From: a bacterium
GTDB taxonomy: Bacteria; Patescibacteriota; Minisyncoccia; Moranbacterales; UBA2206
Reading direction: 5' to 3'
Assembly: GCA_021777675.1 (NCBI GenBank)
Contig: JAJYDG010000003.1
Location: 1 to 49,845, forward strand
Length of the DNA: 49,845 bases
Part shown: positions 460-10,364 of the stretch, piece by piece
Layout: each line of letters starts with the position of its first letter
Numbering within the stretch: position 1 is the first letter of the stretch
The notes under the pieces: model-generated
What the model saw: the letters and a program-made list of their open reading frames with translations, nothing else
Told to the model about the DNA's origin: nothing
The model's database searches: none
Translations under genes and position numbers: made by a program

Positions 460-1122
460 ATGAAAATCAAAGATCTTCCCAAGGTCGACAGGCCAAGGGA
501 AAAATTGGAAAAATACGGTCCGGATAAATTATCTAACGCGGAGCTTTTGGCGGTGATTTTGGGAAAAGGAATGAAGGGGTTGAATGTGCTTGAATTGTCT
601 CATAAAATTTTTAGAAAATTTTCTGGCACCAGTTTAGCCGATGCCAATAGCAAGGAACTGAAAAATTTTTTGGGATTGGGAGGTGCAAAATCTTGCGCAA
701 TTGTAGCTTGCTTTGAGCTTTCACGAAGATTGTTGAAGGATAAAAAAGCGGAATTGATTCTTTCTCCAAAAGATGTTTGGGAAAATTTAATAGATATTCG
801 CAATAGCAAAAAAGAACATTTTATCGTTTTTTATTTGGATTCAAGAAATCAAAAAATTCAACGCGAAGTCATTTCTGTCGGGACATTAAATGCTAGTCTG
901 ATTCATCCGCGAGAGGTATTTGAGCCGGCGATTTGTCACAGCGCCGCTCAAATTTTAATTTCGCATAATCATCCATCTGGAGATGTCAGGCCGTCGGATG
1001 ATGATATTTCTGTTACCAAAAGATTGATAAACGCGGGAAAAATTTTAGGAATTGAAGTCATTGATCATGTAGTAGTTTCTCAATGTGCTTATTTAAGCCT
1101 CAAATGCGAGAACTTGCTTTAA
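460..1122 (+). CDS. radC: RadC/UPF0758 JAB-domain protein
   Basis: N-terminal IKDLP..DRPREKL..YG...LSNAELLA; JAB motif HPREVF...HNHPSGD..PS.DD is intact. Confidence 0.95.
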   Translation: MKIKDLPKVDRPREKLEKYGPDKLSNAELLAVILGKGMKGLNVLELSHKIFRKFSGTSLADANSKELKNFLGLGGAKSCAIVACFELSRRLLKDKKAELILSPKDVWENLIDIRNSKKEHFIVFYLDSRNQKIQREVISVGTLNASLIHPREVFEPAICHSAAQILISHNHPSGDVRPSDDDISVTKRLINAGKILGIEVIDHVVVSQCAYLSLKCENLL

Positions 1123-1150
1123 TATATATGTACGCTATAATGTACATATA
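1114..1150 (+). promoter_or_regulatory. Promoter overlapped by a YefM/Phd-type operator palindrome
   Basis: TTGCTT (1114-1119), 16 bp, TATAAT (1136-1141); perfect inverted repeat TATATGTAC (1125-1133) / GTACATATA (1142-1150); TGTAC cores 12 bp apart. Confidence 0.7.
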
Positions 1151-1167: not shown

Positions 1168-1902
1168 ATGAATACAAAAAATATTTTGTCCATTACCGAG
1201 GCGAGAAAAAAAATTTTTACTATTGTCGATTCTGTGCAAATTGCTAATGCTTCCTGCACATTGACCGAAAGAGGTGAATCAAAAGCGATTGTGCTTTCAA
1301 TGAAAAGCTATGAAGCTTTAACTAAAAAACAAAATTCGGCATTTATTCTTTCCGACGGAGACAAAAATAAATATGCTTGGCGAAATGAAAATCAAATTTT
1401 TTCTAAAAATTTAATTATTCGCGATGAATCGCGCGTAGTTTATCTTTCTGAAAATGATCAAAATAAAAAATATGCTGAAGAAAATTTAATTAAAGCGCAG
1501 TTATATGTTCAATTGATTGAAAAATATAATTATCCCTTGCCACTGGTGGAGTTTGGCCGGTATGTTAAGGTTGGACCAAAGAAAAGCAAGCATTATATTG
1601 AAGCTGATATTATAATCAATGATGAAAACGGTAATGTCGAAATGATTTTCGAAACCAGTCCGTTTTGCGATTATGAAGAAAACATGGATCGAATTGTGGC
1701 TGATCTTTTTTCCTTGGCTGATTCTGTCAGCTGGGTGAAGAAAACGAAATATTTGGTGTATTATTCTCGTTTGGCTAAAAACGGAATAGTTCAAGAAAAA
1801 ATTTTAATCGTTGATTGCTCTAAATTTAATACTTTTTCCGCTTGGAAAAAATCCGGTCGACCGGGAGAGAAAAAAATTCCGCAATTTGAAATAAAAAAAT
1901 AA
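1168..1902 (+). CDS. Phd/YefM antitoxin-like DNA-binding domain fused to a type I HsdR N-terminal-like (PD-(D/E)XK fold) domain
   Basis: N-term SITEARKKIFTIVD.V......LTERGE..AIVLS...YEAL resembles Phd/YefM; C-term EENLIKAQL...L..KYNYP...V....V..G......EADIII...IFE resembles HSDR_N_2. Confidence 0.7.
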   Translation: MNTKNILSITEARKKIFTIVDSVQIANASCTLTERGESKAIVLSMKSYEALTKKQNSAFILSDGDKNKYAWRNENQIFSKNLIIRDESRVVYLSENDQNKKYAEENLIKAQLYVQLIEKYNYPLPLVEFGRYVKVGPKKSKHYIEADIIINDENGNVEMIFETSPFCDYEENMDRIVADLFSLADSVSWVKKTKYLVYYSRLAKNGIVQEKILIVDCSKFNTFSAWKKSGRPGEKKIPQFEIKK

Positions 1903-1972
1903 TTCTTGCAGTTTACTAAAGCGATGATTTGTTGTAAGCTTAGGATAAATTCAAGAAATTTTTTGAAAGCTT

Positions 1973-3547
1973 ATGGCAAATAAAGATATAGATCTAAATA
2001 TGACCAAAGAGCAAGAGCGATCAGAACTTCATCGTGCTATTTGGCAGATTGCCAATGATCTCAGGGGAAGCGTTGACGGTTGGGATTTCAAACAATATGT
2101 CCTTGGAATTTTGTTCTATCGTTTCATTAGTGAAAATCTCACAAGACATCTTAATGATGAAAAAAATGAAGGAACCGATTTTGATTACGCCAAATTAGAT
2201 GATAAAACTGCAGAGTTTGGCAGGAAAGAAACTATCATTGAAAAAGGTTTTTATATCCTGCCAAGTGAACTTTTTGGAAATGTTCGAAAAAATGCTCGCA
2301 ATGATGAAAATCTCAACGAAACGCTTTCTAGGATTTTTGACAATATTGAAAATTCCGCCAAGGGATTTGAAAGCGAAGATGATTTGAAAGGATTGTTCGA
2401 TGACTTGGATGTGAATTCCAATAAGCTCGGCCCAACTGTTGAAAAAAGAAATCAAAGAATCGCAAAGCTCCTTGAAGCGATTGGCGATCTTCGCTTGGGC
2501 GAGTATGCCGACAATACGATTGATGCCTTTGGTGATGCGTATGAATATTTAATGGCGATGTATGCTTCAAATGCCGGAAAATCCGGAGGAGAGTTCTACA
2601 CCCCTCAGGAGGTGAGCGAGCTTTTGGCGGAAATTACTACTGTGGGAAAAAAAGAAGTAAATAAAGTATATGATCCTTGTTGCGGTTCCGGTTCGCTTCT
2701 TTTGAAATTTGCTAAAGTGTTGGGCAAGGAAAATGTTAGACAAGGGTTTTATGGTCAGGAAATAAATCTAACTACCTACAATCTTTGTCGCATCAACATG
2801 TTTTTGCATGATATCAACTACAATCATTTTGATGTAGCGCACGGTGACACACTCACCGATCCAAAACATTGGGACGACGAACCTTTTGATGCCATTGTTT
2901 CCAATCCGCCGTATTCAATTAAATGGGAAGGGGATGCCAATCCGCTCATCATCAATGATCCTCGATTTTCTCCGGCAGGAGTTTTGGCGCCCAAAAGCAA
3001 AGCGGATTTGGCATTCACCATGCACATGCTCTCGTGGCTTTCCACCAGCGGAACAGCGGCGATTGTTGAATTTCCGGGAGTACTCTATCGCGGTGGAGCG
3101 GAACAGAAAATTAGAAAATATTTGATTGATAATAATTATCTGGATGCGGTGATTCAACTCCCGCCGGATCTTTTTTTTGGCACGACAATTGCCACTTGCG
3201 TGGTTGTTTTGAAAAAAAGCAAAAAAGAAAACAAAACTTTGTTCATTGACGCATCGAAAGAATTTGTGCGGGGCGGGAACAAAAACAAATTAAGCGAAGA
3301 AAATCGCAAAAAGATTCTGGATGCGTTCATTGCGCGAAAAGACGCGGAGTATTTTGCCAAACTGGTGGATAATAATACGATTGCTGAGAATGATTATAAC
3401 ATTGCGGTGTCTAGTTATGTGGTGGCGGAAGACACTCGGGAAGTGGTTGATATAAAAGAATTAAATAAAGAAATTGAGAGGATTGTGGCAAGGCAGAGTG
3501 AATTGAGGGTGGCGATTGATGAGATTGTAGCGGATATCGAGAGATAA
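1973..3547 (+). CDS. hsdM: Type I restriction-modification methyltransferase subunit M
   Basis: HsdM_N IWQIANDLRG; GEFYTP, YDPCCGSGSLL (SAM binding), SNPPY (N6-adenine catalytic motif). Confidence 0.97.
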   Translation: MANKDIDLNMTKEQERSELHRAIWQIANDLRGSVDGWDFKQYVLGILFYRFISENLTRHLNDEKNEGTDFDYAKLDDKTAEFGRKETIIEKGFYILPSELFGNVRKNARNDENLNETLSRIFDNIENSAKGFESEDDLKGLFDDLDVNSNKLGPTVEKRNQRIAKLLEAIGDLRLGEYADNTIDAFGDAYEYLMAMYASNAGKSGGEFYTPQEVSELLAEITTVGKKEVNKVYDPCCGSGSLLLKFAKVLGKENVRQGFYGQEINLTTYNLCRINMFLHDINYNHFDVAHGDTLTDPKHWDDEPFDAIVSNPPYSIKWEGDANPLIINDPRFSPAGVLAPKSKADLAFTMHMLSWLSTSGTAAIVEFPGVLYRGGAEQKIRKYLIDNNYLDAVIQLPPDLFFGTTIATCVVVLKKSKKENKTLFIDASKEFVRGGNKNKLSEENRKKILDAFIARKDAEYFAKLVDNNTIAENDYNIAVSSYVVAEDTREVVDIKELNKEIERIVARQSELRVAIDEIVADIER

Positions 3548-3574
3548 TTATAAAATTTAACAAAAAGAACCAAT

Positions 3575-5041
3575 ATGAACAATGAGGAGCTTGTTAAAAT
3601 GTTTTTGGATACTCAGGAATGGCAGACTTTTGAGTGCAAAAGAGCGGCAATTAAGCCTTCCGATTTGCTTGAAACAGTTGTTGCTTTCGCAAATGCAGAC
3701 GGAGGCCTTATTGTTATTGGAATTGAAGATCCCAAAAAAGCCAATGGTGTGAAACGATTGCTTGGAATAAGTGAAAATTTGGATAATTGTTCAGATTTTT
3801 TAAAATTGCTCGAAAAAGAAATTGAACCACCATTGTTATTATGGAGAAAGTTTGAAATCAAAATTATAAATGTTGATGGAAAAGATGATAAGCTGCTTGT
3901 TTTAAATATTGAAAAAAGTAATGATGTTCATTCATTGAAGAAGGGTGATACTTTTGTAAGAAAAGGAAGTCAAAATGTTAAAATTGGTTCTACAGAAATA
4001 ATGCGTCTTAAATATGAAAAAGGTGCAATTAAATTCGAAAATGAGAGGTCTGGAATATTTCTATTGGATGATTTGGATCATGTTCTGCTTTCTCAATATA
4101 AAAAAGACACATCAAGCACTGGTGTGGATGATTGGCAATTCCTCAAAGACAATGGACTAGCATTTAATGATGGTGGAAAGTTTGAATTAACAAAGGCGGG
4201 CGTTTTGCTATTTGGGAAAAATCCATCAGTTTCCCTAAAGAGTAAATGTGGTGTGAAAATTTCTCATTATTATGGAACCAAGCCCACATATTCAGGGGAG
4301 CCAAATTTTGTCTCAAGACCTTTTACAGTGGAGGGGTCATTAATAAAGCAAATTGAAAAAACATTGGAGTATTTTGATACGATTGTTAAAAATTCCCCGC
4401 CTAAATTGGCTGGCGCCTCATTTGCACCTACATTTTTGATTCCCGCTTGGGCTTTTCAGGAGGCCATTACAAATGCCATCATTCATCGTAACTATTTTGT
4501 GCAGGATGATATCCATGTGCGCTTCTTTGATGATCGTGTAGAAATAGAAAGCCCTGGAACATATCCTGGACACATTACGGTTGATAACATAAGAAGTGAA
4601 AGATTTTCACGCAATCCGTTGATATTGAGAACATTGAATCGTTTTCAATCTGCGCCGAATCTTGATATTGGTGAAGGAGTTGATCGAATGTTCATGGTTA
4701 TGAGAAAACAAAACCTATATGAACCGCTATTTTTTCCTCCAAAAATTAGACCGAATTCAGTTTTGCTATTGTTGTTAAATATGCAAAGAATCGAATATTG
4801 GGATACAGTCAGTAATTATTTGAATGAAAACTACCGAATTACTAATTCTAAGGCTCGTGAGATTACGGGGTTAAGTGATGTATTGAAGATGTCCAGGTTT
4901 TTAAAGTCATGGGTTGAAAAGGGCTTATTGGAAAAAATTGGCTCTGGAAAAAAGGACAGTTTTTATATGAAGCCTGGTCAAGATGTTCCGAGAAATTTAT
5001 TTTCAAGCGGGGATGAAAATAAAACAGAAATATGCAAATAA
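3575..5041 (+). CDS. AlbA_2 (Schlafen-like) + HATPase_c_4 + winged-HTH protein (often labelled RecG-like/transcriptional regulator)
   Basis: E...FECK, VAFANADGGLIVIGIED (AlbA_2); AFQEAITNAIIHRNY, FDDRVEIESPG, SRNP, GEGV (HATPase_c_4); C-terminal ITN...REITG HTH. Confidence 0.85.
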   Translation: MNNEELVKMFLDTQEWQTFECKRAAIKPSDLLETVVAFANADGGLIVIGIEDPKKANGVKRLLGISENLDNCSDFLKLLEKEIEPPLLLWRKFEIKIINVDGKDDKLLVLNIEKSNDVHSLKKGDTFVRKGSQNVKIGSTEIMRLKYEKGAIKFENERSGIFLLDDLDHVLLSQYKKDTSSTGVDDWQFLKDNGLAFNDGGKFELTKAGVLLFGKNPSVSLKSKCGVKISHYYGTKPTYSGEPNFVSRPFTVEGSLIKQIEKTLEYFDTIVKNSPPKLAGASFAPTFLIPAWAFQEAITNAIIHRNYFVQDDIHVRFFDDRVEIESPGTYPGHITVDNIRSERFSRNPLILRTLNRFQSAPNLDIGEGVDRMFMVMRKQNLYEPLFFPPKIRPNSVLLLLLNMQRIEYWDTVSNYLNENYRITNSKAREITGLSDVLKMSRFLKSWVEKGLLEKIGSGKKDSFYMKPGQDVPRNLFSSGDENKTEICK

Positions 5042-5116
5042 TGCCTTGTTTCAGCCATTAATTCATTTTTCTTATTTTCAGAGGTTAAAATAGGCGGCAT
5101 ATCTTTTAAAGAAAAA

Positions 5117-6298
5117 ATGAGGGTAAATAATATGACCAATCGCCAATCAACAATCGAAAAACTAATTTCAGAACTATGCCCTGATGGCGTAGTATTTAAA
5201 GATTTGGAAAGCTTAGCGAGTATAGAAACCGGAACACAATTAAACAAGACTGAGTTGTCGGAAATTGGAGACTATGCTGTGTTGAATGGCGGAATAAATC
5301 CTTCTGGTTATTATCATGAGTATAACACTATCGAAAATACGATTGCTATTAGCCAAGGTGGAGCATCTGCTGGTTACGTTAATTTTGTCACAACTAAATT
5401 TTGGGCAGGAGCCCATTGTTTTGTTATAAAACCAATAACTGATGAAATAAATAATAGATTTTTATATTTTATCTTAAAAAATGCACAAGAAAAATTACAA
5501 AATGCAAAACTTGGTGCAGGTATCCCAGGATTAAACAAAAAAGAATTGCAAAACTTTAAAATCCCCATCCCACCCCTTGCCATCCAAGAAGAAATTGTCA
5601 AAATTCTTAATAGTTTTACAGAGCTAGAAGCAGAGCTAGAAGCAGAACTGGAAGCAAGGAAGAAACAATACAAATATTATAGGGATGATCTATTGAACAT
5701 AAAAGATGTTGAGTATAAAGCCCTAGGAGAAATTGGGGAATTTATTAGAGGCAATGGCCTGCAGAAAAAAGATTTTACAGAAACTGGAGTTGGTTGTATT
5801 CATTATGGTCAAATTTATACTTACTACGGAACTTTTGCCGATAAAACCAAAACATTTGTTTCAGAAGAACTAGCAAGAAAATTGAAAAAAGCCCAAAAAG
5901 GGGATGTGCTAATTGCTGGCGTAAGTGAAAACATTGAAGATGTTTGCAAACCACTAGGATGGTTAGGAGATGAGATTTGTATTAGCGGCGATATGTTTGC
6001 CTTCCGCCATAATCAAAATACAAAATTTATTACATATCTTTTGCAAACTACAAATTTTCATAAATATAAAGAACGGTATGCGCAAGGAGCTAAGGTAACT
6101 CGTGTTAAAACTAGCAGGATACTAGATTATAAAATTCCAGTCCCACCACTCAAAGAACAAAAAAGAATCGTTTCAATTCTCGATAAATTCGACGCCTTAG
6201 TAAACGACATTTCCATTGGTCTGCCGGCCGAACTCAAAGCTCGAAGATCGCAGTATGAATATTATCGCGGGAAACTTTTAAGTTTCAAAACACTATGA
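5117..6298 (+). CDS. hsdS: Type I RM specificity subunit S, type IC-like (start may be 5132)
   Basis: Two TRDs with IPIPPLAIQEEIV and IPVPPLKEQKRIV conserved regions; central (ELEA)3 repeat; C-term GLPAEL.AR..QYEYYR..LL. Confidence 0.95.
   Translation: MRVNNMTNRQSTIEKLISELCPDGVVFKDLESLASIETGTQLNKTELSEIGDYAVLNGGINPSGYYHEYNTIENTIAISQGGASAGYVNFVTTKFWAGAHCFVIKPITDEINNRFLYFILKNAQEKLQNAKLGAGIPGLNKKELQNFKIPIPPLAIQEEIVKILNSFTELEAELEAELEARKKQYKYYRDDLLNIKDVEYKALGEIGEFIRGNGLQKKDFTETGVGCIHYGQIYTYYGTFADKTKTFVSEELARKLKKAQKGDVLIAGVSENIEDVCKPLGWLGDEICISGDMFAFRHNQNTKFITYLLQTTNFHKYKERYAQGAKVTRVKTSRILDYKIPVPPLKEQKRIVSILDKFDALVNDISIGLPAELKARRSQYEYYRGKLLSFKTL
5621..5656 (+). repeat. Three tandem 12-bp repeats in the hsdS central conserved region
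   Basis: GAGCTAGAAGCA GAGCTAGAAGCA GAACTGGAAGCA, encoding ELEA x3. Confidence 0.9.
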
Positions 6299-7314
6299 AA
6301 AAAGAATTACAAAATCAAATAATTATTTATGAAGGAGATGATGGAGAGTCTCACATAGAAGTTCGATTTGAGGGGGAAACTGTTTGGCTTACGCAGGCGC
6401 AACTTGTAGATTTGTATCAATCAAGCAAGGCCAATATCAGCGAGCATATTAAGAATATCTATTCAGAAAAGGAATTAACTCCAGAGGCAACTGTTCGGAA
6501 ATTCCGAACAGTTCAAAAAGAGGGAAATAGAGAGGTTTCTAGGGACATTGAGCATTATAGTCTTGATATGATTATTTCGCTTGGTTATAGAATTAAATCC
6601 CAGATTGCTACAAAGTTTCGTATTTGGGCGACCGCGCGCCTCAAAGAATATATTATCAAAGGATTTGCAATGGATGACGAAAGACTGAAGGGAACTGGCG
6701 GTGGAAATTATTGGAAGGAATTACTGGAGAGAATCCGAGATATTCGCAGTAGTGAAAAAGTGCTTTATCGACAGGTACTTGATTTGTACGCAACCAGTGT
6801 TGACTATGATCCCAAAAGCAAAGAGTCGATTTTATTTTTTAAAACTGTTCAAAATAAATTACATTATGCCACTAATCAGCAGACTGCGGCTGAATTGATT
6901 TTTTCTCGTGCGGATGCGGAAAAAGAATTTATGGGAATGACGAACTTTTCCGGTAAAATGCCAACCAAAATAGACTCAACTATTGCCAAGAGCTACTTGA
7001 CCAAAGATGAATTGTACCGACTTAATCGCTTGGTATCCGCCTTTTTTGATTTGGCTGAAATTAAAGCGCAAGATGAGCAACCAATGAAGATGAAGGATTG
7101 GGTTGCGGAGCTGGATAAATTTTCGGAAATATACGGAAAAGGTAAATTGCTTAATGCGGGGAATGTGAGTCATGAAAAAGCCATGAAAAAAGTGGAGGAA
7201 GAATATCGCAAATATCAAACAATGACCATGTCTCCGGTAGAAAAGGATTATATGGAATCAATCAAGGCTGTGGAAAAAAAGATTGTTAAGAAAGTTAAGT
7301 TGAATAAGAAATAA
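6295..7314 (+). CDS. rhuM: RhuM family protein
   Basis: ETVWLTQAQL..LY..S..NISEHIKNI; YSLDMIISLGYRI.S..AT.FR.WAT..LKEY..KGF..D.ERLK; ELLERIRDIRSSEK; ATGA overlap with hsdS. Confidence 0.9.
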   Translation: MKKELQNQIIIYEGDDGESHIEVRFEGETVWLTQAQLVDLYQSSKANISEHIKNIYSEKELTPEATVRKFRTVQKEGNREVSRDIEHYSLDMIISLGYRIKSQIATKFRIWATARLKEYIIKGFAMDDERLKGTGGGNYWKELLERIRDIRSSEKVLYRQVLDLYATSVDYDPKSKESILFFKTVQNKLHYATNQQTAAELIFSRADAEKEFMGMTNFSGKMPTKIDSTIAKSYLTKDELYRLNRLVSAFFDLAEIKAQDEQPMKMKDWVAELDKFSEIYGKGKLLNAGNVSHEKAMKKVEEEYRKYQTMTMSPVEKDYMESIKAVEKKIVKKVKLNKK

Positions 7315-7319
7315 AAAAT

Positions 7320-10300
7320 ATGAAATATAATTTAGTCGCACAAAATCCGGAAAGCACCGTTGTTGCCGAATATCAGCGGCCCATTGATCGTGTGCGAGAT
7401 GGCAACGCCTACCAAAACGAAGCCGATCTTGAACGTGCTTTTGTCAAGCAACTAGAAACTCAAGCTTATGAATATTTGAAAATCACTTCTGAAAATGAGT
7501 TAGTAAGCAACTTGCGACAACAACTTGAAAAGCTAAACAATTTTTCCTTTTCTAATACCGAATGGGAAAGATTTTTCATAAGTGAAATTGCTAATTCCAA
7601 TCAAAGCATTGAAGAAAAAACCGCCACTATTCAAGAAGATATCACAAAAATACTAGACCGAGATGATGGCACTTTCAAAAATATTGATTTCATAGACAAG
7701 AAAAACATTCACAACAACAGCTTGCAGGTCATCAATCAATATGTCACAGACGAAGGACAACGCGTTAATCGCTATGATGTAACGGTGCTGGTGAATGGTT
7801 TGCCTCTTGTGCATATTGAGCTCAAACGCCGAGGCGTGGCGATCCAAGAAGCTTTCAATCAAATCAATCGCTATCATCGAGAAAGTTTTTGGGCTGCCAG
7901 CGGACTTTTTGAATATGTGCAATTGTTTGTCATTTCCAATGGAACGCATACAAAATATTACAGCAATACCACCAGATCGCAGCACATCAAGGAATCAAAT
8001 GAAGGTAAAACCAAGAAAGGCAAAAAAACGAGCACCAGTTTTGAATTTACTAGTTGGTGGGCGGATGCGACCAATCGGCCAATTATGGATCTGATTGATT
8101 TCGCCAAAACATTTTTTGCCAAGCATACGCTTTTGAATATTTTGACAAAATATTGCGTGTTTACCACGGACCACTTGCTTCTTGTTATGCGTCCCTATCA
8201 GATTGTGGCGACCGAACGAATATTGAACAAAATCGAGATCAGTACGAATTATAAAAAACTTGGGACAGCGGAAGCTGGGGGATACGTTTGGCACACCACC
8301 GGATCGGGAAAGACTTTGACCAGCTTCAAAACCGCTCAACTTGTCAGTAAATTGTCGTATGTGGACAAGGTATTATTTGTGGTTGATCGTAAGGATTTGG
8401 ACTATCAAACAATGCGAGAGTACGACAAATTTGAAAAAGGGGCGGCCAATAGCAACACTAGTACTGCTCTTTTGAAAAAGCAACTGGAAAATTCAAATGC
8501 CAGAATAATTGTAACGACCATCCAGAAGCTGGATAAATTTATTGGGAAAAATGCCAAACATGCAATATTTGACGGGCATATTGTGATTATTTTTGACGAA
8601 TGTCATCGTAGCCAATTTGGCGATATGCACGCGAGCATTGTCAAAGCCTTTAAAAACTATCATTTATTTGGTTTTACCGGTACGCCAATTTTTGCCGTTA
8701 ATTCTTCAGCTGGTGGGCGAGTTGATATTAAAACTACCGCGCAGGCTTTTGGAGAAAAATTGCATACCTATACAATCGTGGATGCAATTGCGGATAAAAA
8801 CGTTCTGCCGTTTAGAATTGACTATATTTCAACCGTTCATGAAGCTGAGAATGTCGAGGATAAAAAAGTTCCAGATATTGATCGCGAAGCTGTGCTTGCC
8901 GCACCTGAACGTTTGACAAATATTGTCAAGTACATTCGTGAGCATTTTGATCAAAAAACTAAGCGCAACAGTTTTTATAAAATCCAAGAGCGGAGGATGG
9001 CAGGCTTCAACTCAATTTTTGCCGTTTCATCTATCGATGTGGCCAAAAAATATTATCTTGAGTTTAAAAAACAATTAGATGGCGAACCAAGCGATAAACA
9101 ACTTAAAATAGCGACGATTTTCAGTTTTGGAGTGAACGACGAAGATGCAGACAGTATGCTTGATGAAAATTCAGAGGATACAAGCGGGCTGGACGTTAAC
9201 TCGCGAGATTTTCTTGAGAGCGCTATCTCAGATTATAACCAAATGTTTGGCACTTCCTATGACACTTCATCGGATAAGTTCCAAAATTATTATAAAGATG
9301 TCAGCGAGCGAGTGAAAAAAAGAGAAATAGACATTCTGATTGTGGTAAATATGTTTTTGACTGGGTTTGACGCGACAACTCTCAACACTTTGTGGGTGGA
9401 TAAAAATCTGCGTTTGCATGGCTTGCTCCAGGCATTTTCTAGGACTAATCGCATTTTGAATAGTGTGAAAACTTTTGGAAATATTGTTTGTTTTCGTAAC
9501 TTGGAAAAAGCAACCAATGAATCTATCGCGCTTTTTGGCGACAAAGAAGCGAGTGGAATTGTGCTTCTCAGGACCTATGGAGACTACTATAATGGCTATA
9601 AAGACGGCGATAAAGAAGTGTGGGGATATAAGAGTTTAATAGACGAACTTTTAAAGAAATTCCCAGTAGGAGAAAGGATTGTCGGTGAGCAGAATCAAAA
9701 AGATTTTATCAAATTATATGGAGCGGTTTTGCGCATGCGAAATATTCTCACAACCTTTGATGAATTTGCAGGTCAGGAAATTTTATCTCCGCGTGATGTG
9801 CAAGATTATCACAGTAGGTATATCGATTTGTACAATGAATTTCGCAAAAGCACAGAAGAAGAAAAAGAAAACGTTAATGATGATCTGGTCTTTGAGATGG
9901 AATTAATAAAACAAGTCGAAATCAACATTGACTATATTTTGGGTCTTATCAAGAAATACCACGAGGATCATGTAAAAAATAAAGAGCTCCTGGTTGATAT
10001 TAATAAAGCCATCGATTCTAGTGTCGAGCTTCGCAATAAAAAAGATCTTATTAATCAATTTATTGCCTCCCTTGATGCGCACTCTGTTATTGATGAAGAT
10101 TGGCAAAAATTTATCAAAGAAAAGAAAATTGAGGAATTGGAAGAAATTATTAAAAATGAAAATCTTGACCGAGAAGCGACCTATAAGTTTATAAACAATG
10201 CTTTTAGGGATGGAAACGTTGCGACAACCGGCACCGCAATTTCAAAAGTATTGCCACCAGTATCTCGATTTTCTCCAACTGGCGAACGAACACAAAAACG

Positions 10301-10364
10301 AGAAAGTGTTTTGAATAAGTTGACAAATTTCTTTGAGAGATTCTTTGATATTTCGCGAGGCTAG
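7320..10364 (+). CDS. hsdR: Type I restriction endonuclease subunit R (EcoR124-like)
   Basis: RYDVTVLVNGLPLVHIELK nuclease motif; WHTTGSGKT Walker A; DECHR; MFLTGFD; QAFSRTNR. Confidence 0.97.
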   Translation: MKYNLVAQNPESTVVAEYQRPIDRVRDGNAYQNEADLERAFVKQLETQAYEYLKITSENELVSNLRQQLEKLNNFSFSNTEWERFFISEIANSNQSIEEKTATIQEDITKILDRDDGTFKNIDFIDKKNIHNNSLQVINQYVTDEGQRVNRYDVTVLVNGLPLVHIELKRRGVAIQEAFNQINRYHRESFWAASGLFEYVQLFVISNGTHTKYYSNTTRSQHIKESNEGKTKKGKKTSTSFEFTSWWADATNRPIMDLIDFAKTFFAKHTLLNILTKYCVFTTDHLLLVMRPYQIVATERILNKIEISTNYKKLGTAEAGGYVWHTTGSGKTLTSFKTAQLVSKLSYVDKVLFVVDRKDLDYQTMREYDKFEKGAANSNTSTALLKKQLENSNARIIVTTIQKLDKFIGKNAKHAIFDGHIVIIFDECHRSQFGDMHASIVKAFKNYHLFGFTGTPIFAVNSSAGGRVDIKTTAQAFGEKLHTYTIVDAIADKNVLPFRIDYISTVHEAENVEDKKVPDIDREAVLAAPERLTNIVKYIREHFDQKTKRNSFYKIQERRMAGFNSIFAVSSIDVAKKYYLEFKKQLDGEPSDKQLKIATIFSFGVNDEDADSMLDENSEDTSGLDVNSRDFLESAISDYNQMFGTSYDTSSDKFQNYYKDVSERVKKREIDILIVVNMFLTGFDATTLNTLWVDKNLRLHGLLQAFSRTNRILNSVKTFGNIVCFRNLEKATNESIALFGDKEASGIVLLRTYGDYYNGYKDGDKEVWGYKSLIDELLKKFPVGERIVGEQNQKDFIKLYGAVLRMRNILTTFDEFAGQEILSPRDVQDYHSRYIDLYNEFRKSTEEEKENVNDDLVFEMELIKQVEINIDYILGLIKKYHEDHVKNKELLVDINKAIDSSVELRNKKDLINQFIASLDAHSVIDEDWQKFIKEKKIEELEEIIKNENLDREATYKFINNAFRDGNVATTGTAISKVLPPVSRFSPTGERTQKRESVLNKLTNFFERFFDISRG

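Follow-up and report, generated by a model that had tools for sequence, protein, structure and literature searches.

Antitoxins are usually regarded as inseparable from their toxins. The C proteins of type II restriction-modification (RM) systems are small, bind DNA, regulate their own expression and are encoded at the head of the RM operon. The promoter of E. coli yefM-yoeB is overlapped by an operator in which 5'-TGTACA-3' cores occur in pairs, their centres lying 12 bp apart and the spacers being of 6 bp (PMC1802561). The PanA, or Panacea, antitoxins are presented as modular proteins in which a DNA-binding or neutralising element is joined to a globular domain proposed as a sensor (PMC10440598). 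The gene analysed here invites comparison with each of these. It lies in a stretch of 49,845 nucleotides, called the window below, from a bacterium of the Moranbacterales (Patescibacteriota; contig JAJYDG010000003.1 of assembly GCA_021777675.1). It occupies 1168..1902 on the forward strand as an open reading frame (ORF) of 244 amino acids, follows radC, and joins a Phd/YefM-type domain to a domain of the PD-(D/E)xK nuclease fold; it is referred to as the fusion gene.

The reading that we favour, and hold to be probable without being secure, is that the gene encodes a YefM/Phd autorepressor derived from a toxin-antitoxin (TA) system, in which the toxin has been replaced by a remodelled nuclease-fold domain, and which sits in a variable slot beside radC. 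Its likeness to the YefM/Phd antitoxins (E. coli YefM-YoeB, P1 Phd-Doc, M. tuberculosis RelJ and Rv2865) is in the N-terminal fold. It differs from them in having no toxin gene, in missing a segment of about 40 residues which is presumed to bind the toxin, and in carrying a folded 150-residue PD-(D/E)xK domain, its most conserved part. With PanA it shares a modular design with an accessory globular domain; those antitoxins retain a cognate toxin gene and have an accessory domain of other than nuclease fold, whereas the fusion gene is without a toxin. The likeness to C proteins is confined to the window, where a putative autoregulator heads an RM operon. C proteins have an Xre-type helix-turn-helix, whereas the fusion protein has a YefM fold and an operator of the YefM kind, and is linked to RM genes in 2 of 14 loci. 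No description of a Phd/YefM and HSDR_N_2 fusion was found in the literature searched (open-access papers and bioRxiv). The databases label the gene a plain antitoxin; in the source records its family is given as 'prevent-host-death family' or, wrongly, as 'N-6 DNA methylase'.

The N-terminal part (1168..1332, plus strand, residues 1-55) is a Phd/YefM-type DNA-binding and dimerisation domain according to Pfam, profiles of PDB structures and a structural model. PhdYeFM_antitox (PF02604) matches residues 6-54 with an E-value of 3.3e-7 and 30.4 bits against a cut-off of 29.8, which bears out what a sequence-only reading of the window had said of this half; TIGR01552, at 20.2, falls slightly under its cut-off of 20.8. 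The profile matches in the PDB are to the antitoxins Rv2865, RelJ, YefM and Phd. In the AlphaFold2 model a helix at 9-26 is followed by strands at 29-34 and 37-43 and a second helix at 45-58, with a predicted local distance difference test (pLDDT) score of about 80-85. The linker (1333..1449, plus strand, residues 56-94) is predicted to be disordered, pLDDT being below 50 over residues 55-94. Two motifs within it, FILSDGDKNKY and LIIRDESRVVYLS, are conserved in the family alignment. The second of these (1411-1449, residues 82-94) is similar to F-I-L-A-D-K..K-K-Y, the tail found in the sister stand-alone Phd proteins; its conservation is high both within the family and among stand-alone relatives, and it may be a docking element.

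Between radC and the fusion gene lies a putative operator, TGTACG-CTATAA-TGTACA (1129..1146, neither strand being assigned), 22 nt upstream of the start codon. Its boxes (1129-1134 and 1141-1146) are 12 bp apart centre to centre, with a 6-bp spacer, and straddle a perfect -10 hexamer, TATAAT, at 1136-1141; a wider inverted repeat is formed there by ATATGTAC and GTACATAT (1126-1133 and 1142-1149). In E. coli, the YefM operator has this same geometry, with paired boxes over a -10 element. A putative -35 box, TTGCTT, is found 16 nt upstream of TATAAT, at 1114..1119 on the plus strand, ie within the final codons of radC, the stop codon of which is at 1120-1122. It was not listed by the promoter scan because only three of its six positions fit the consensus; TTGCT(T/A) is also present at the 3' end of radC in other loci.

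The genome (878,724 bases, 95% complete) contains the pattern TGTAC-N8-GTACA only once, and no paired boxes were found elsewhere in the window, including near the hsd genes. With one site in this genome and no further pairs in the window, a regulon was dropped. In 34 of 36 non-duplicate loci the looser pattern GTAC-N8-GTAC is present no more than 300 nt upstream of the gene; its usual distance from the ATG is 39-48 nt, and the loci include a clade that is only 34-40% identical. Within an evenly sampled set of 201 genomes of the order (Moraniibacteriota), 24 contain the operator pattern, which lies at the fusion gene in 13 and at a stand-alone phd gene in two; the reversed control pattern gave four sites in three genomes. 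The arrangement points to autorepression by a dimer as the putative role of the operator. GTAC itself is unremarkable in frequency genome-wide (observed/expected ratio, O/E, 0.81), and avoidance of this tetranucleotide was dropped on that figure.

The C-terminal part (1450..1899, plus strand, residues 95-244) is, by profile, model and Foldseek comparison, a PD-(D/E)xK domain of the kind found in type IIB/IIG enzymes, and its active site is remodelled. The direct Pfam match to HSDR_N_2, at residues 113-164, is weak (E 0.0085, 16.6 bits, under the 25-bit cut-off). A profile of 33 family members, compared with the N-terminal endonuclease domain of RM.BsaXI (8w0p, residues 39-176), gives an E-value of 4.2e-18, and the weak match is taken as true homology because both this profile and the fold agree with the BsaXI domain. 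The mean pLDDT of the AlphaFold2 model of the fusion protein is 78, rising to about 90 over residues 95-240, where an alpha-beta-beta-beta-alpha-beta core is modelled at 95-118, 127-135, 142-151, 157-163, 173-187 and 195-204. BsaXI chains take the top three places among the Foldseek matches in the PDB, with E-values from 4.8e-9 to 6.5e-8 and an rmsd of 3.0-3.3 A over some 140 columns; MGME1, RecE, Card1, Cas4 and Exo5 come next. The likeness to the BsaXI domain extends from sequence and fold to the core D and E residues and to a C-terminal 'W..G.P....IP' region; the fusion protein has no methyltransferase or specificity domain.

In BsaXI, each of the substitutions E73A, D90A, E105A and K107A abolishes activity (PMC11997821). 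In the profile alignment these four residues face, respectively, G130 (nt 1555-1557), D147 (1606-1608), E162 (1651-1653) and S164 (1657-1659), so that the catalytic set is without two of the four, E73 having become G130 and K107 having become S164. The E-T-S which had been noticed in place of the expected E-x-K, in 'YIEADIII...MIFETSPF', is thus located correctly, E162-T163-S164 aligning with BsaXI E105-V106-K107. Among aligned type IIG N-terminal domains the E-x-K motif, its lysine and its glutamate are each present in 11 of 11. In the 33-member family alignment neither the motif nor the lysine is found (0/33 for both), and the glutamate is kept in 27/33; in a wider set of Phd-fused proteins the corresponding figures are 0/14, 0/14 and 3/14. 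The residue facing BsaXI E73 is a near-invariant glycine in the family, and E118 and E145 are invariant gains specific to it. The sequence-only reading had described the domain as an apparently inactive HsdR-N nuclease fold. A PD-(D/E)xK fold lacking catalytic residues is what is found, with BsaXI as its best structural match; the assignment to type I falls away, the relatives being of types IIB and IIG. Against the HsdR of the operon itself there is no detectable similarity, the best BLASTP alignment having an E-value of 0.49 and being out of register.

An exhaustive search of 1.84 billion representatives returned 120 proteins at E-values up to 0.001; a word-based search for the fusion family gave 83 clusters at the same threshold, and a search with P0102 alone found no relatives. 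In the exhaustive search the relatives of the C-terminal domain occur as stand-alone proteins of about 170-200 amino acids and as the N-termini of long enzymes. N6_Mtase and Eco57I domains are present in 14 of the 15 scanned matches longer than 680 amino acids, and these long relatives are therefore type IIG/IIB enzymes. A profile of the stand-alone domain matches in 4 of 401 genomes of the phylum, this genome among them. The strength of selection was estimated from 24 pairs at 70-97% identity, and the median dN/dS is 0.109 for the N-terminal domain (residues 1-55), 0.236 for the linker (residues 56-80) and 0.042 for the C-terminal domain (residues 81-240). The C-terminal domain is the most constrained part of the protein, and is therefore functional and no relic.

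The likely origin of the fusion is preserved in sister genomes, which carry a true type II TA pair at the same site. In two of them (G023 and G089) only the N-terminal part of the family profile matches (positions 1-94 and 1-102), and the gene encodes a free-standing Phd protein, 123 or 119 amino acids long, with a full-length Pfam match. It is followed by an overlapping ORF of 84 amino acids that matches ParE_toxin (E 8e-13), and the pair stands directly 3' of radC, behind the same operator. A third phd-parE case at radC is L069. When the fused protein is compared with the stand-alone Phd proteins of L021, L022 and L069, residues 1-50 and the tail motif F-I-L-A/S-D...K-Y are kept, and about 40 residues between the fold and the tail are gone; these are presumably the toxin-binding segment, by analogy with YefM and Phd. 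The sister cassette is followed directly by a type IIG enzyme in L021 and by hsdR-hsdM in L022, and in G023 a type IIG enzyme with such a nuclease domain comes right after parE. Most simply, a phd-parE cassette next to radC would have been deprived of the toxin and the toxin-binding segment and would have gained a nuclease domain. In the window, no RelE, Doc or PIN gene follows the fusion gene, as had been noted from the sequence, nor does a ParE gene, and no ParE-like ORF was labelled beside the fused gene among the loci examined.

The fusion family is seen only in Moraniibacteriota and is patchy within it. The family profile matched in 22 of the 201 genomes, 16 of which have the full-length gene, and none of the seven other genomes of the same genus carries it. 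radC (PF04002) is present in 70 of the 201 genomes and in all 16 with the fusion gene; it is directly upstream on the same strand in 14, divergent in one (G194), with the operator between the two genes, and in one (G055) a remnant of radC fused to a rhuM fragment lies beside the gene, an intact radC being found elsewhere. At L008 the ORF directly 5' of the fusion gene (5263-5952) is a chimera of an N-terminal RhuM part and the last 35 or so RadC residues, and a rhuM insertion appears to have destroyed the radC copy there. In a collection of species representatives, radC is directly upstream in 15 of 18 loci. Among 29 metagenome loci it is upstream in 19, directly downstream in two and absent in three, and five have no upstream DNA. 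The two with the reversed order, gene then radC (L102 and L103), belong to a divergent clade. The pair is thus kept in three arrangements, while the genes outside it vary by locus. The 18 RadC proteins which precede the fusion gene form one group in the RadC tree, with support of 89/90 at a node that is not starred. Five of the records (L007, L012, L013, L015 and L018) are titled 'uncultured Bdellovibrionales bacterium' though their radC and Phd-fusion loci are like those of Moraniibacteriota, which looks like a labelling problem.

The contents of the radC flank were surveyed at all radC matches of the order sample, ORFs being called by script and neighbours labelled by seed sequences and Pfam. 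L115 and L122 were dropped, having no radC label, and L152 and L160 were without downstream DNA. The baseline set comprised 55 radC loci with neither the fusion gene nor phd and with at least one downstream gene. In 27 of the 55 an RM gene is first or second downstream of radC or is fused to it in frame, and two more have one within five genes, giving 29/55. The RM genes are of many types: HsdM, HsdR and HsdS, type IIG enzymes, D12, C5 or N6_N4 methyltransferases, and Eco47II, HpaII and MutH-like nucleases. Other cargo of this flank includes Fic, OLD, ThsB-TIR and GmrSD genes.

Two further observations concern this slot. In L125, L128, L129 and L145 a gene of the Fic/Doc family lies between radC and hsdM or hsdR, in the same position as the fusion gene. 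In six loci RadC, with its helix-hairpin-helix (HhH) and JAB parts, is in one ORF with a DNA methyltransferase, which is of the C5 type in two, D12/Dam-like in three and of the N6_N4 type in one (L161:6756-8420, L171:6074-7753, L162:5862-7670, L163:6748-8556, L166:3145-5019 and L165:6061-7668). Downstream there is a nuclease that looks cognate (HpaII) or a second methyltransferase. The ORFs are real fusions, or else they arose by insertion exactly at the radC stop codon.

It had been suggested that the fusion gene serves the type I RM operon as a controller or guard, repressing hsd while a dead HsdR-like domain senses RM assembly or decoys anti-restriction proteins. Its position in the window favours this, hsdM beginning, as had been noted, 70 nt downstream with no terminator or promoter-like site found between the two (1902-1973). 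Elsewhere, RM genes come after the fusion gene and a ParA-like gene in L001, L005 and G166, and the sister phd-parE cassettes in L021 and L022 have the RM neighbours described above. However, RM genes are found within five downstream genes in only 2 of the 14 loci with radC then the gene (the window and G166), against 29/55 where the gene is absent, and the genes which follow it elsewhere are mostly housekeeping (rpsL-rpsG-fusA, trmD, nusB, RNase HII, murB, ftsK). Two genomes of the same genus, G136 and G198, have radC followed directly by hsdR-hsdM or hsdM. With RM genes at 27/55 without the gene and 2/14 with it, the RM link belongs to the radC flank and not to the fusion gene, and homologues show no conserved hsd linkage. 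Nor does a decoy fit, given the lack of similarity to HsdR; the pI of the C-terminal domain is 8.4, and it is therefore no acidic DNA mimic. There is no second operator near hsd. We consider a dedicated RM controller most unlikely. Of the earlier idea of a repressor with an RM-sensing domain, the repressor appears very probable and the RM-sensing part has found no support. It had also been proposed that the protein is the antitoxin of the Schlafen/AlbA_2 protein encoded within the hsd operon (3575-5041). The one point in its favour is that the two share a putative transcription unit in the window; no Schlafen/AlbA_2 gene was labelled beside the gene in the other loci examined, and the segment by which the sister Phd proteins presumably bind their toxin is missing. 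That proposal is scarcely credible.

Three other explanations begin from the protein or from its constant neighbour. The protein might be a TA system fused into one chain, or an abortive infection system, in which the C-terminal domain would do harm by nicking or by binding DNA tightly at E118, E145, D147 and E162, would be restrained in cis, and would be kept low by autorepression of the YefM type. Descent from a TA cassette, the patchy distribution (16/201 genomes) in a slot rich in defence genes, the invariant acidic residues and the very strong constraint on the domain all agree with this, but the catalytic lysine is absent in 33/33, a glycine stands almost invariably opposite BsaXI E73, and E162 is lost in 6/33 of the family and in 11/14 of the wider Phd-fused set. 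The gene has no PADLOC family match at E-values up to 1, no match in PHROGs and no phage homologue by tblastn, and we think this explanation improbable. ImmA-type proteases cleave ImmR-type repressors, and a dedicated partnership with RadC could be of that kind, the JAB enzyme processing the repressor at its disordered linker; otherwise the fusion protein could regulate or neutralise RadC. The adjacency in three arrangements (radC-gene, gene-radC, and divergent with the operator between), with flanks outside the pair that differ in every locus, the presence of radC in 16/16 genomes with the gene, and a conserved disordered motif, LIIRDESRVVYLS, that could serve as docking or cleavage site are in its favour, and a RadC-like gene is also found beside a TA pair in E. 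coli CP4-44 (yeeS-yeeT-cbeA-cbtA). On the other side, 54 of the 70 genomes with radC lack the gene and the flank is a hotspot for unrelated cargo, and RadC, the biochemical activity of which is unknown, is predicted to work by processing nucleic acids and not as a peptidase (PMC5512222). A RadC partner is rather unlikely, though worth keeping in mind. A more speculative version, to which we give distinctly little credence, is that radC and the fusion gene work together as a sensing module where the defence slot opens. The promoter would be held shut by the YefM domain. Either the nuclease domain and the disordered motif would sense some state of the DNA or a protein of foreign origin, or the JAB domain of RadC would process them in the manner of ImmA, and the event would switch on the gene and the defence cargo downstream, here the type I RM operon. 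If true, a RadC partnership would for the first time have a function assigned to it, and no TA antitoxin would have been seen before to be turned into a stand-alone sensor-repressor.

The reading of a TA-derived autorepressor has its own difficulties. Because D147 is retained, as is E162 in 27/33, and E118 and E145 do not vary, the metal site may be altered and catalysis may persist or have arisen anew. The conserved LIIRDESRVVYLS falls in a region predicted to be disordered (pLDDT below 50), and its role is unexplained by the model. radC without the fusion gene is the commoner state (54/70 genomes), and, the radC flank being a general hotspot, position alone could account for the adjacency of the two. 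The genomes were assembled from metagenomes and are interrelated, so that the counts are not independent. Finally, DNA binding, repression and the lack of nuclease activity are all things that we infer.

On the TA-derived autorepressor reading, the ancestor would have been a phd-parE cassette in the variable slot beside radC. The toxin gene would have been lost, as would the stretch joining the DNA-binding fold to the C-terminal tail, and a nuclease domain of the type IIB/IIG kind fused on. A dimer would bind both operator boxes through its N-terminal domains and shut its own promoter, as E. coli YefM does. The C-terminal domain would no longer cut DNA and may have taken the place of the toxin as a built-in co-repressor or sensor; it might bind DNA adjoining the operator, a protein partner (RadC being a candidate) or a ligand of foreign origin. 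The same promoter would probably also read into the hsd operon here, as a local accident of island insertion.

The radC gene of the window (460..1122, plus strand) is full length, encoding a UPF0758_N HhH domain (E 3.4e-23) and a RadC-like JAB domain (Pfam RadC, E 3.3e-39). Downstream of the fusion gene, the type I RM island (1973..10364, plus strand) is variable cargo of the radC flank and no conserved partner of the gene. By Pfam and PADLOC it consists of hsdM (1973-3547), a Schlafen/AlbA_2 and HATPase_c_4 gene (3575-5041), hsdS (5117-6298), rhuM (6295-7314) and hsdR (7320-10364), all on the plus strand; two extra genes are thus carried inside the operon, one between hsdM and hsdS and the other between hsdS and hsdR. 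The product of the first matches a PADLOC model named pAgo (E 1e-28), and the RhuM-family gene matches PDC-S05 (E 2e-146). No att-like direct repeats were found flanking 1168-10364. As no terminator or promoter-like site was found between the fusion gene and hsdM, the fusion-gene promoter may feed the hsd operon in this genome, and such readthrough may be an incidental, local consequence of the insertion of the island. Two AAGCTT sites 26 nt apart (1935-1975) could form a hairpin over the hsdM start codon; a terminator or attenuator at this place was dropped, the hairpin not being significant against shuffled sequences (z -1.61). In the whole genome G000, the palindromes GGCC (O/E 0.42) and ACGT (O/E 0.46) are strongly under-represented, which suggests past or present restriction pressure at both tetranucleotides.

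What the family offers is a case in which the toxin has been discarded, the operator logic of YefM kept and a catalytically depleted restriction-nuclease domain added. Sister genomes preserve the starting state, and the case therefore traces the recycling of TA parts into regulators. It also corrects a tempting misreading, for it is the shared use of a variable slot beside radC, and nothing more, that puts the gene at the head of a type I RM operon. The hotspot at the radC flank and the fusions of radC with methyltransferases may merit separate attention. In Moraniibacteriota, roughly one in two of the examined radC loci has RM genes in that slot, which is relevant to the organisation of defence in the ultra-small genomes of the CPR and to the function of RadC.

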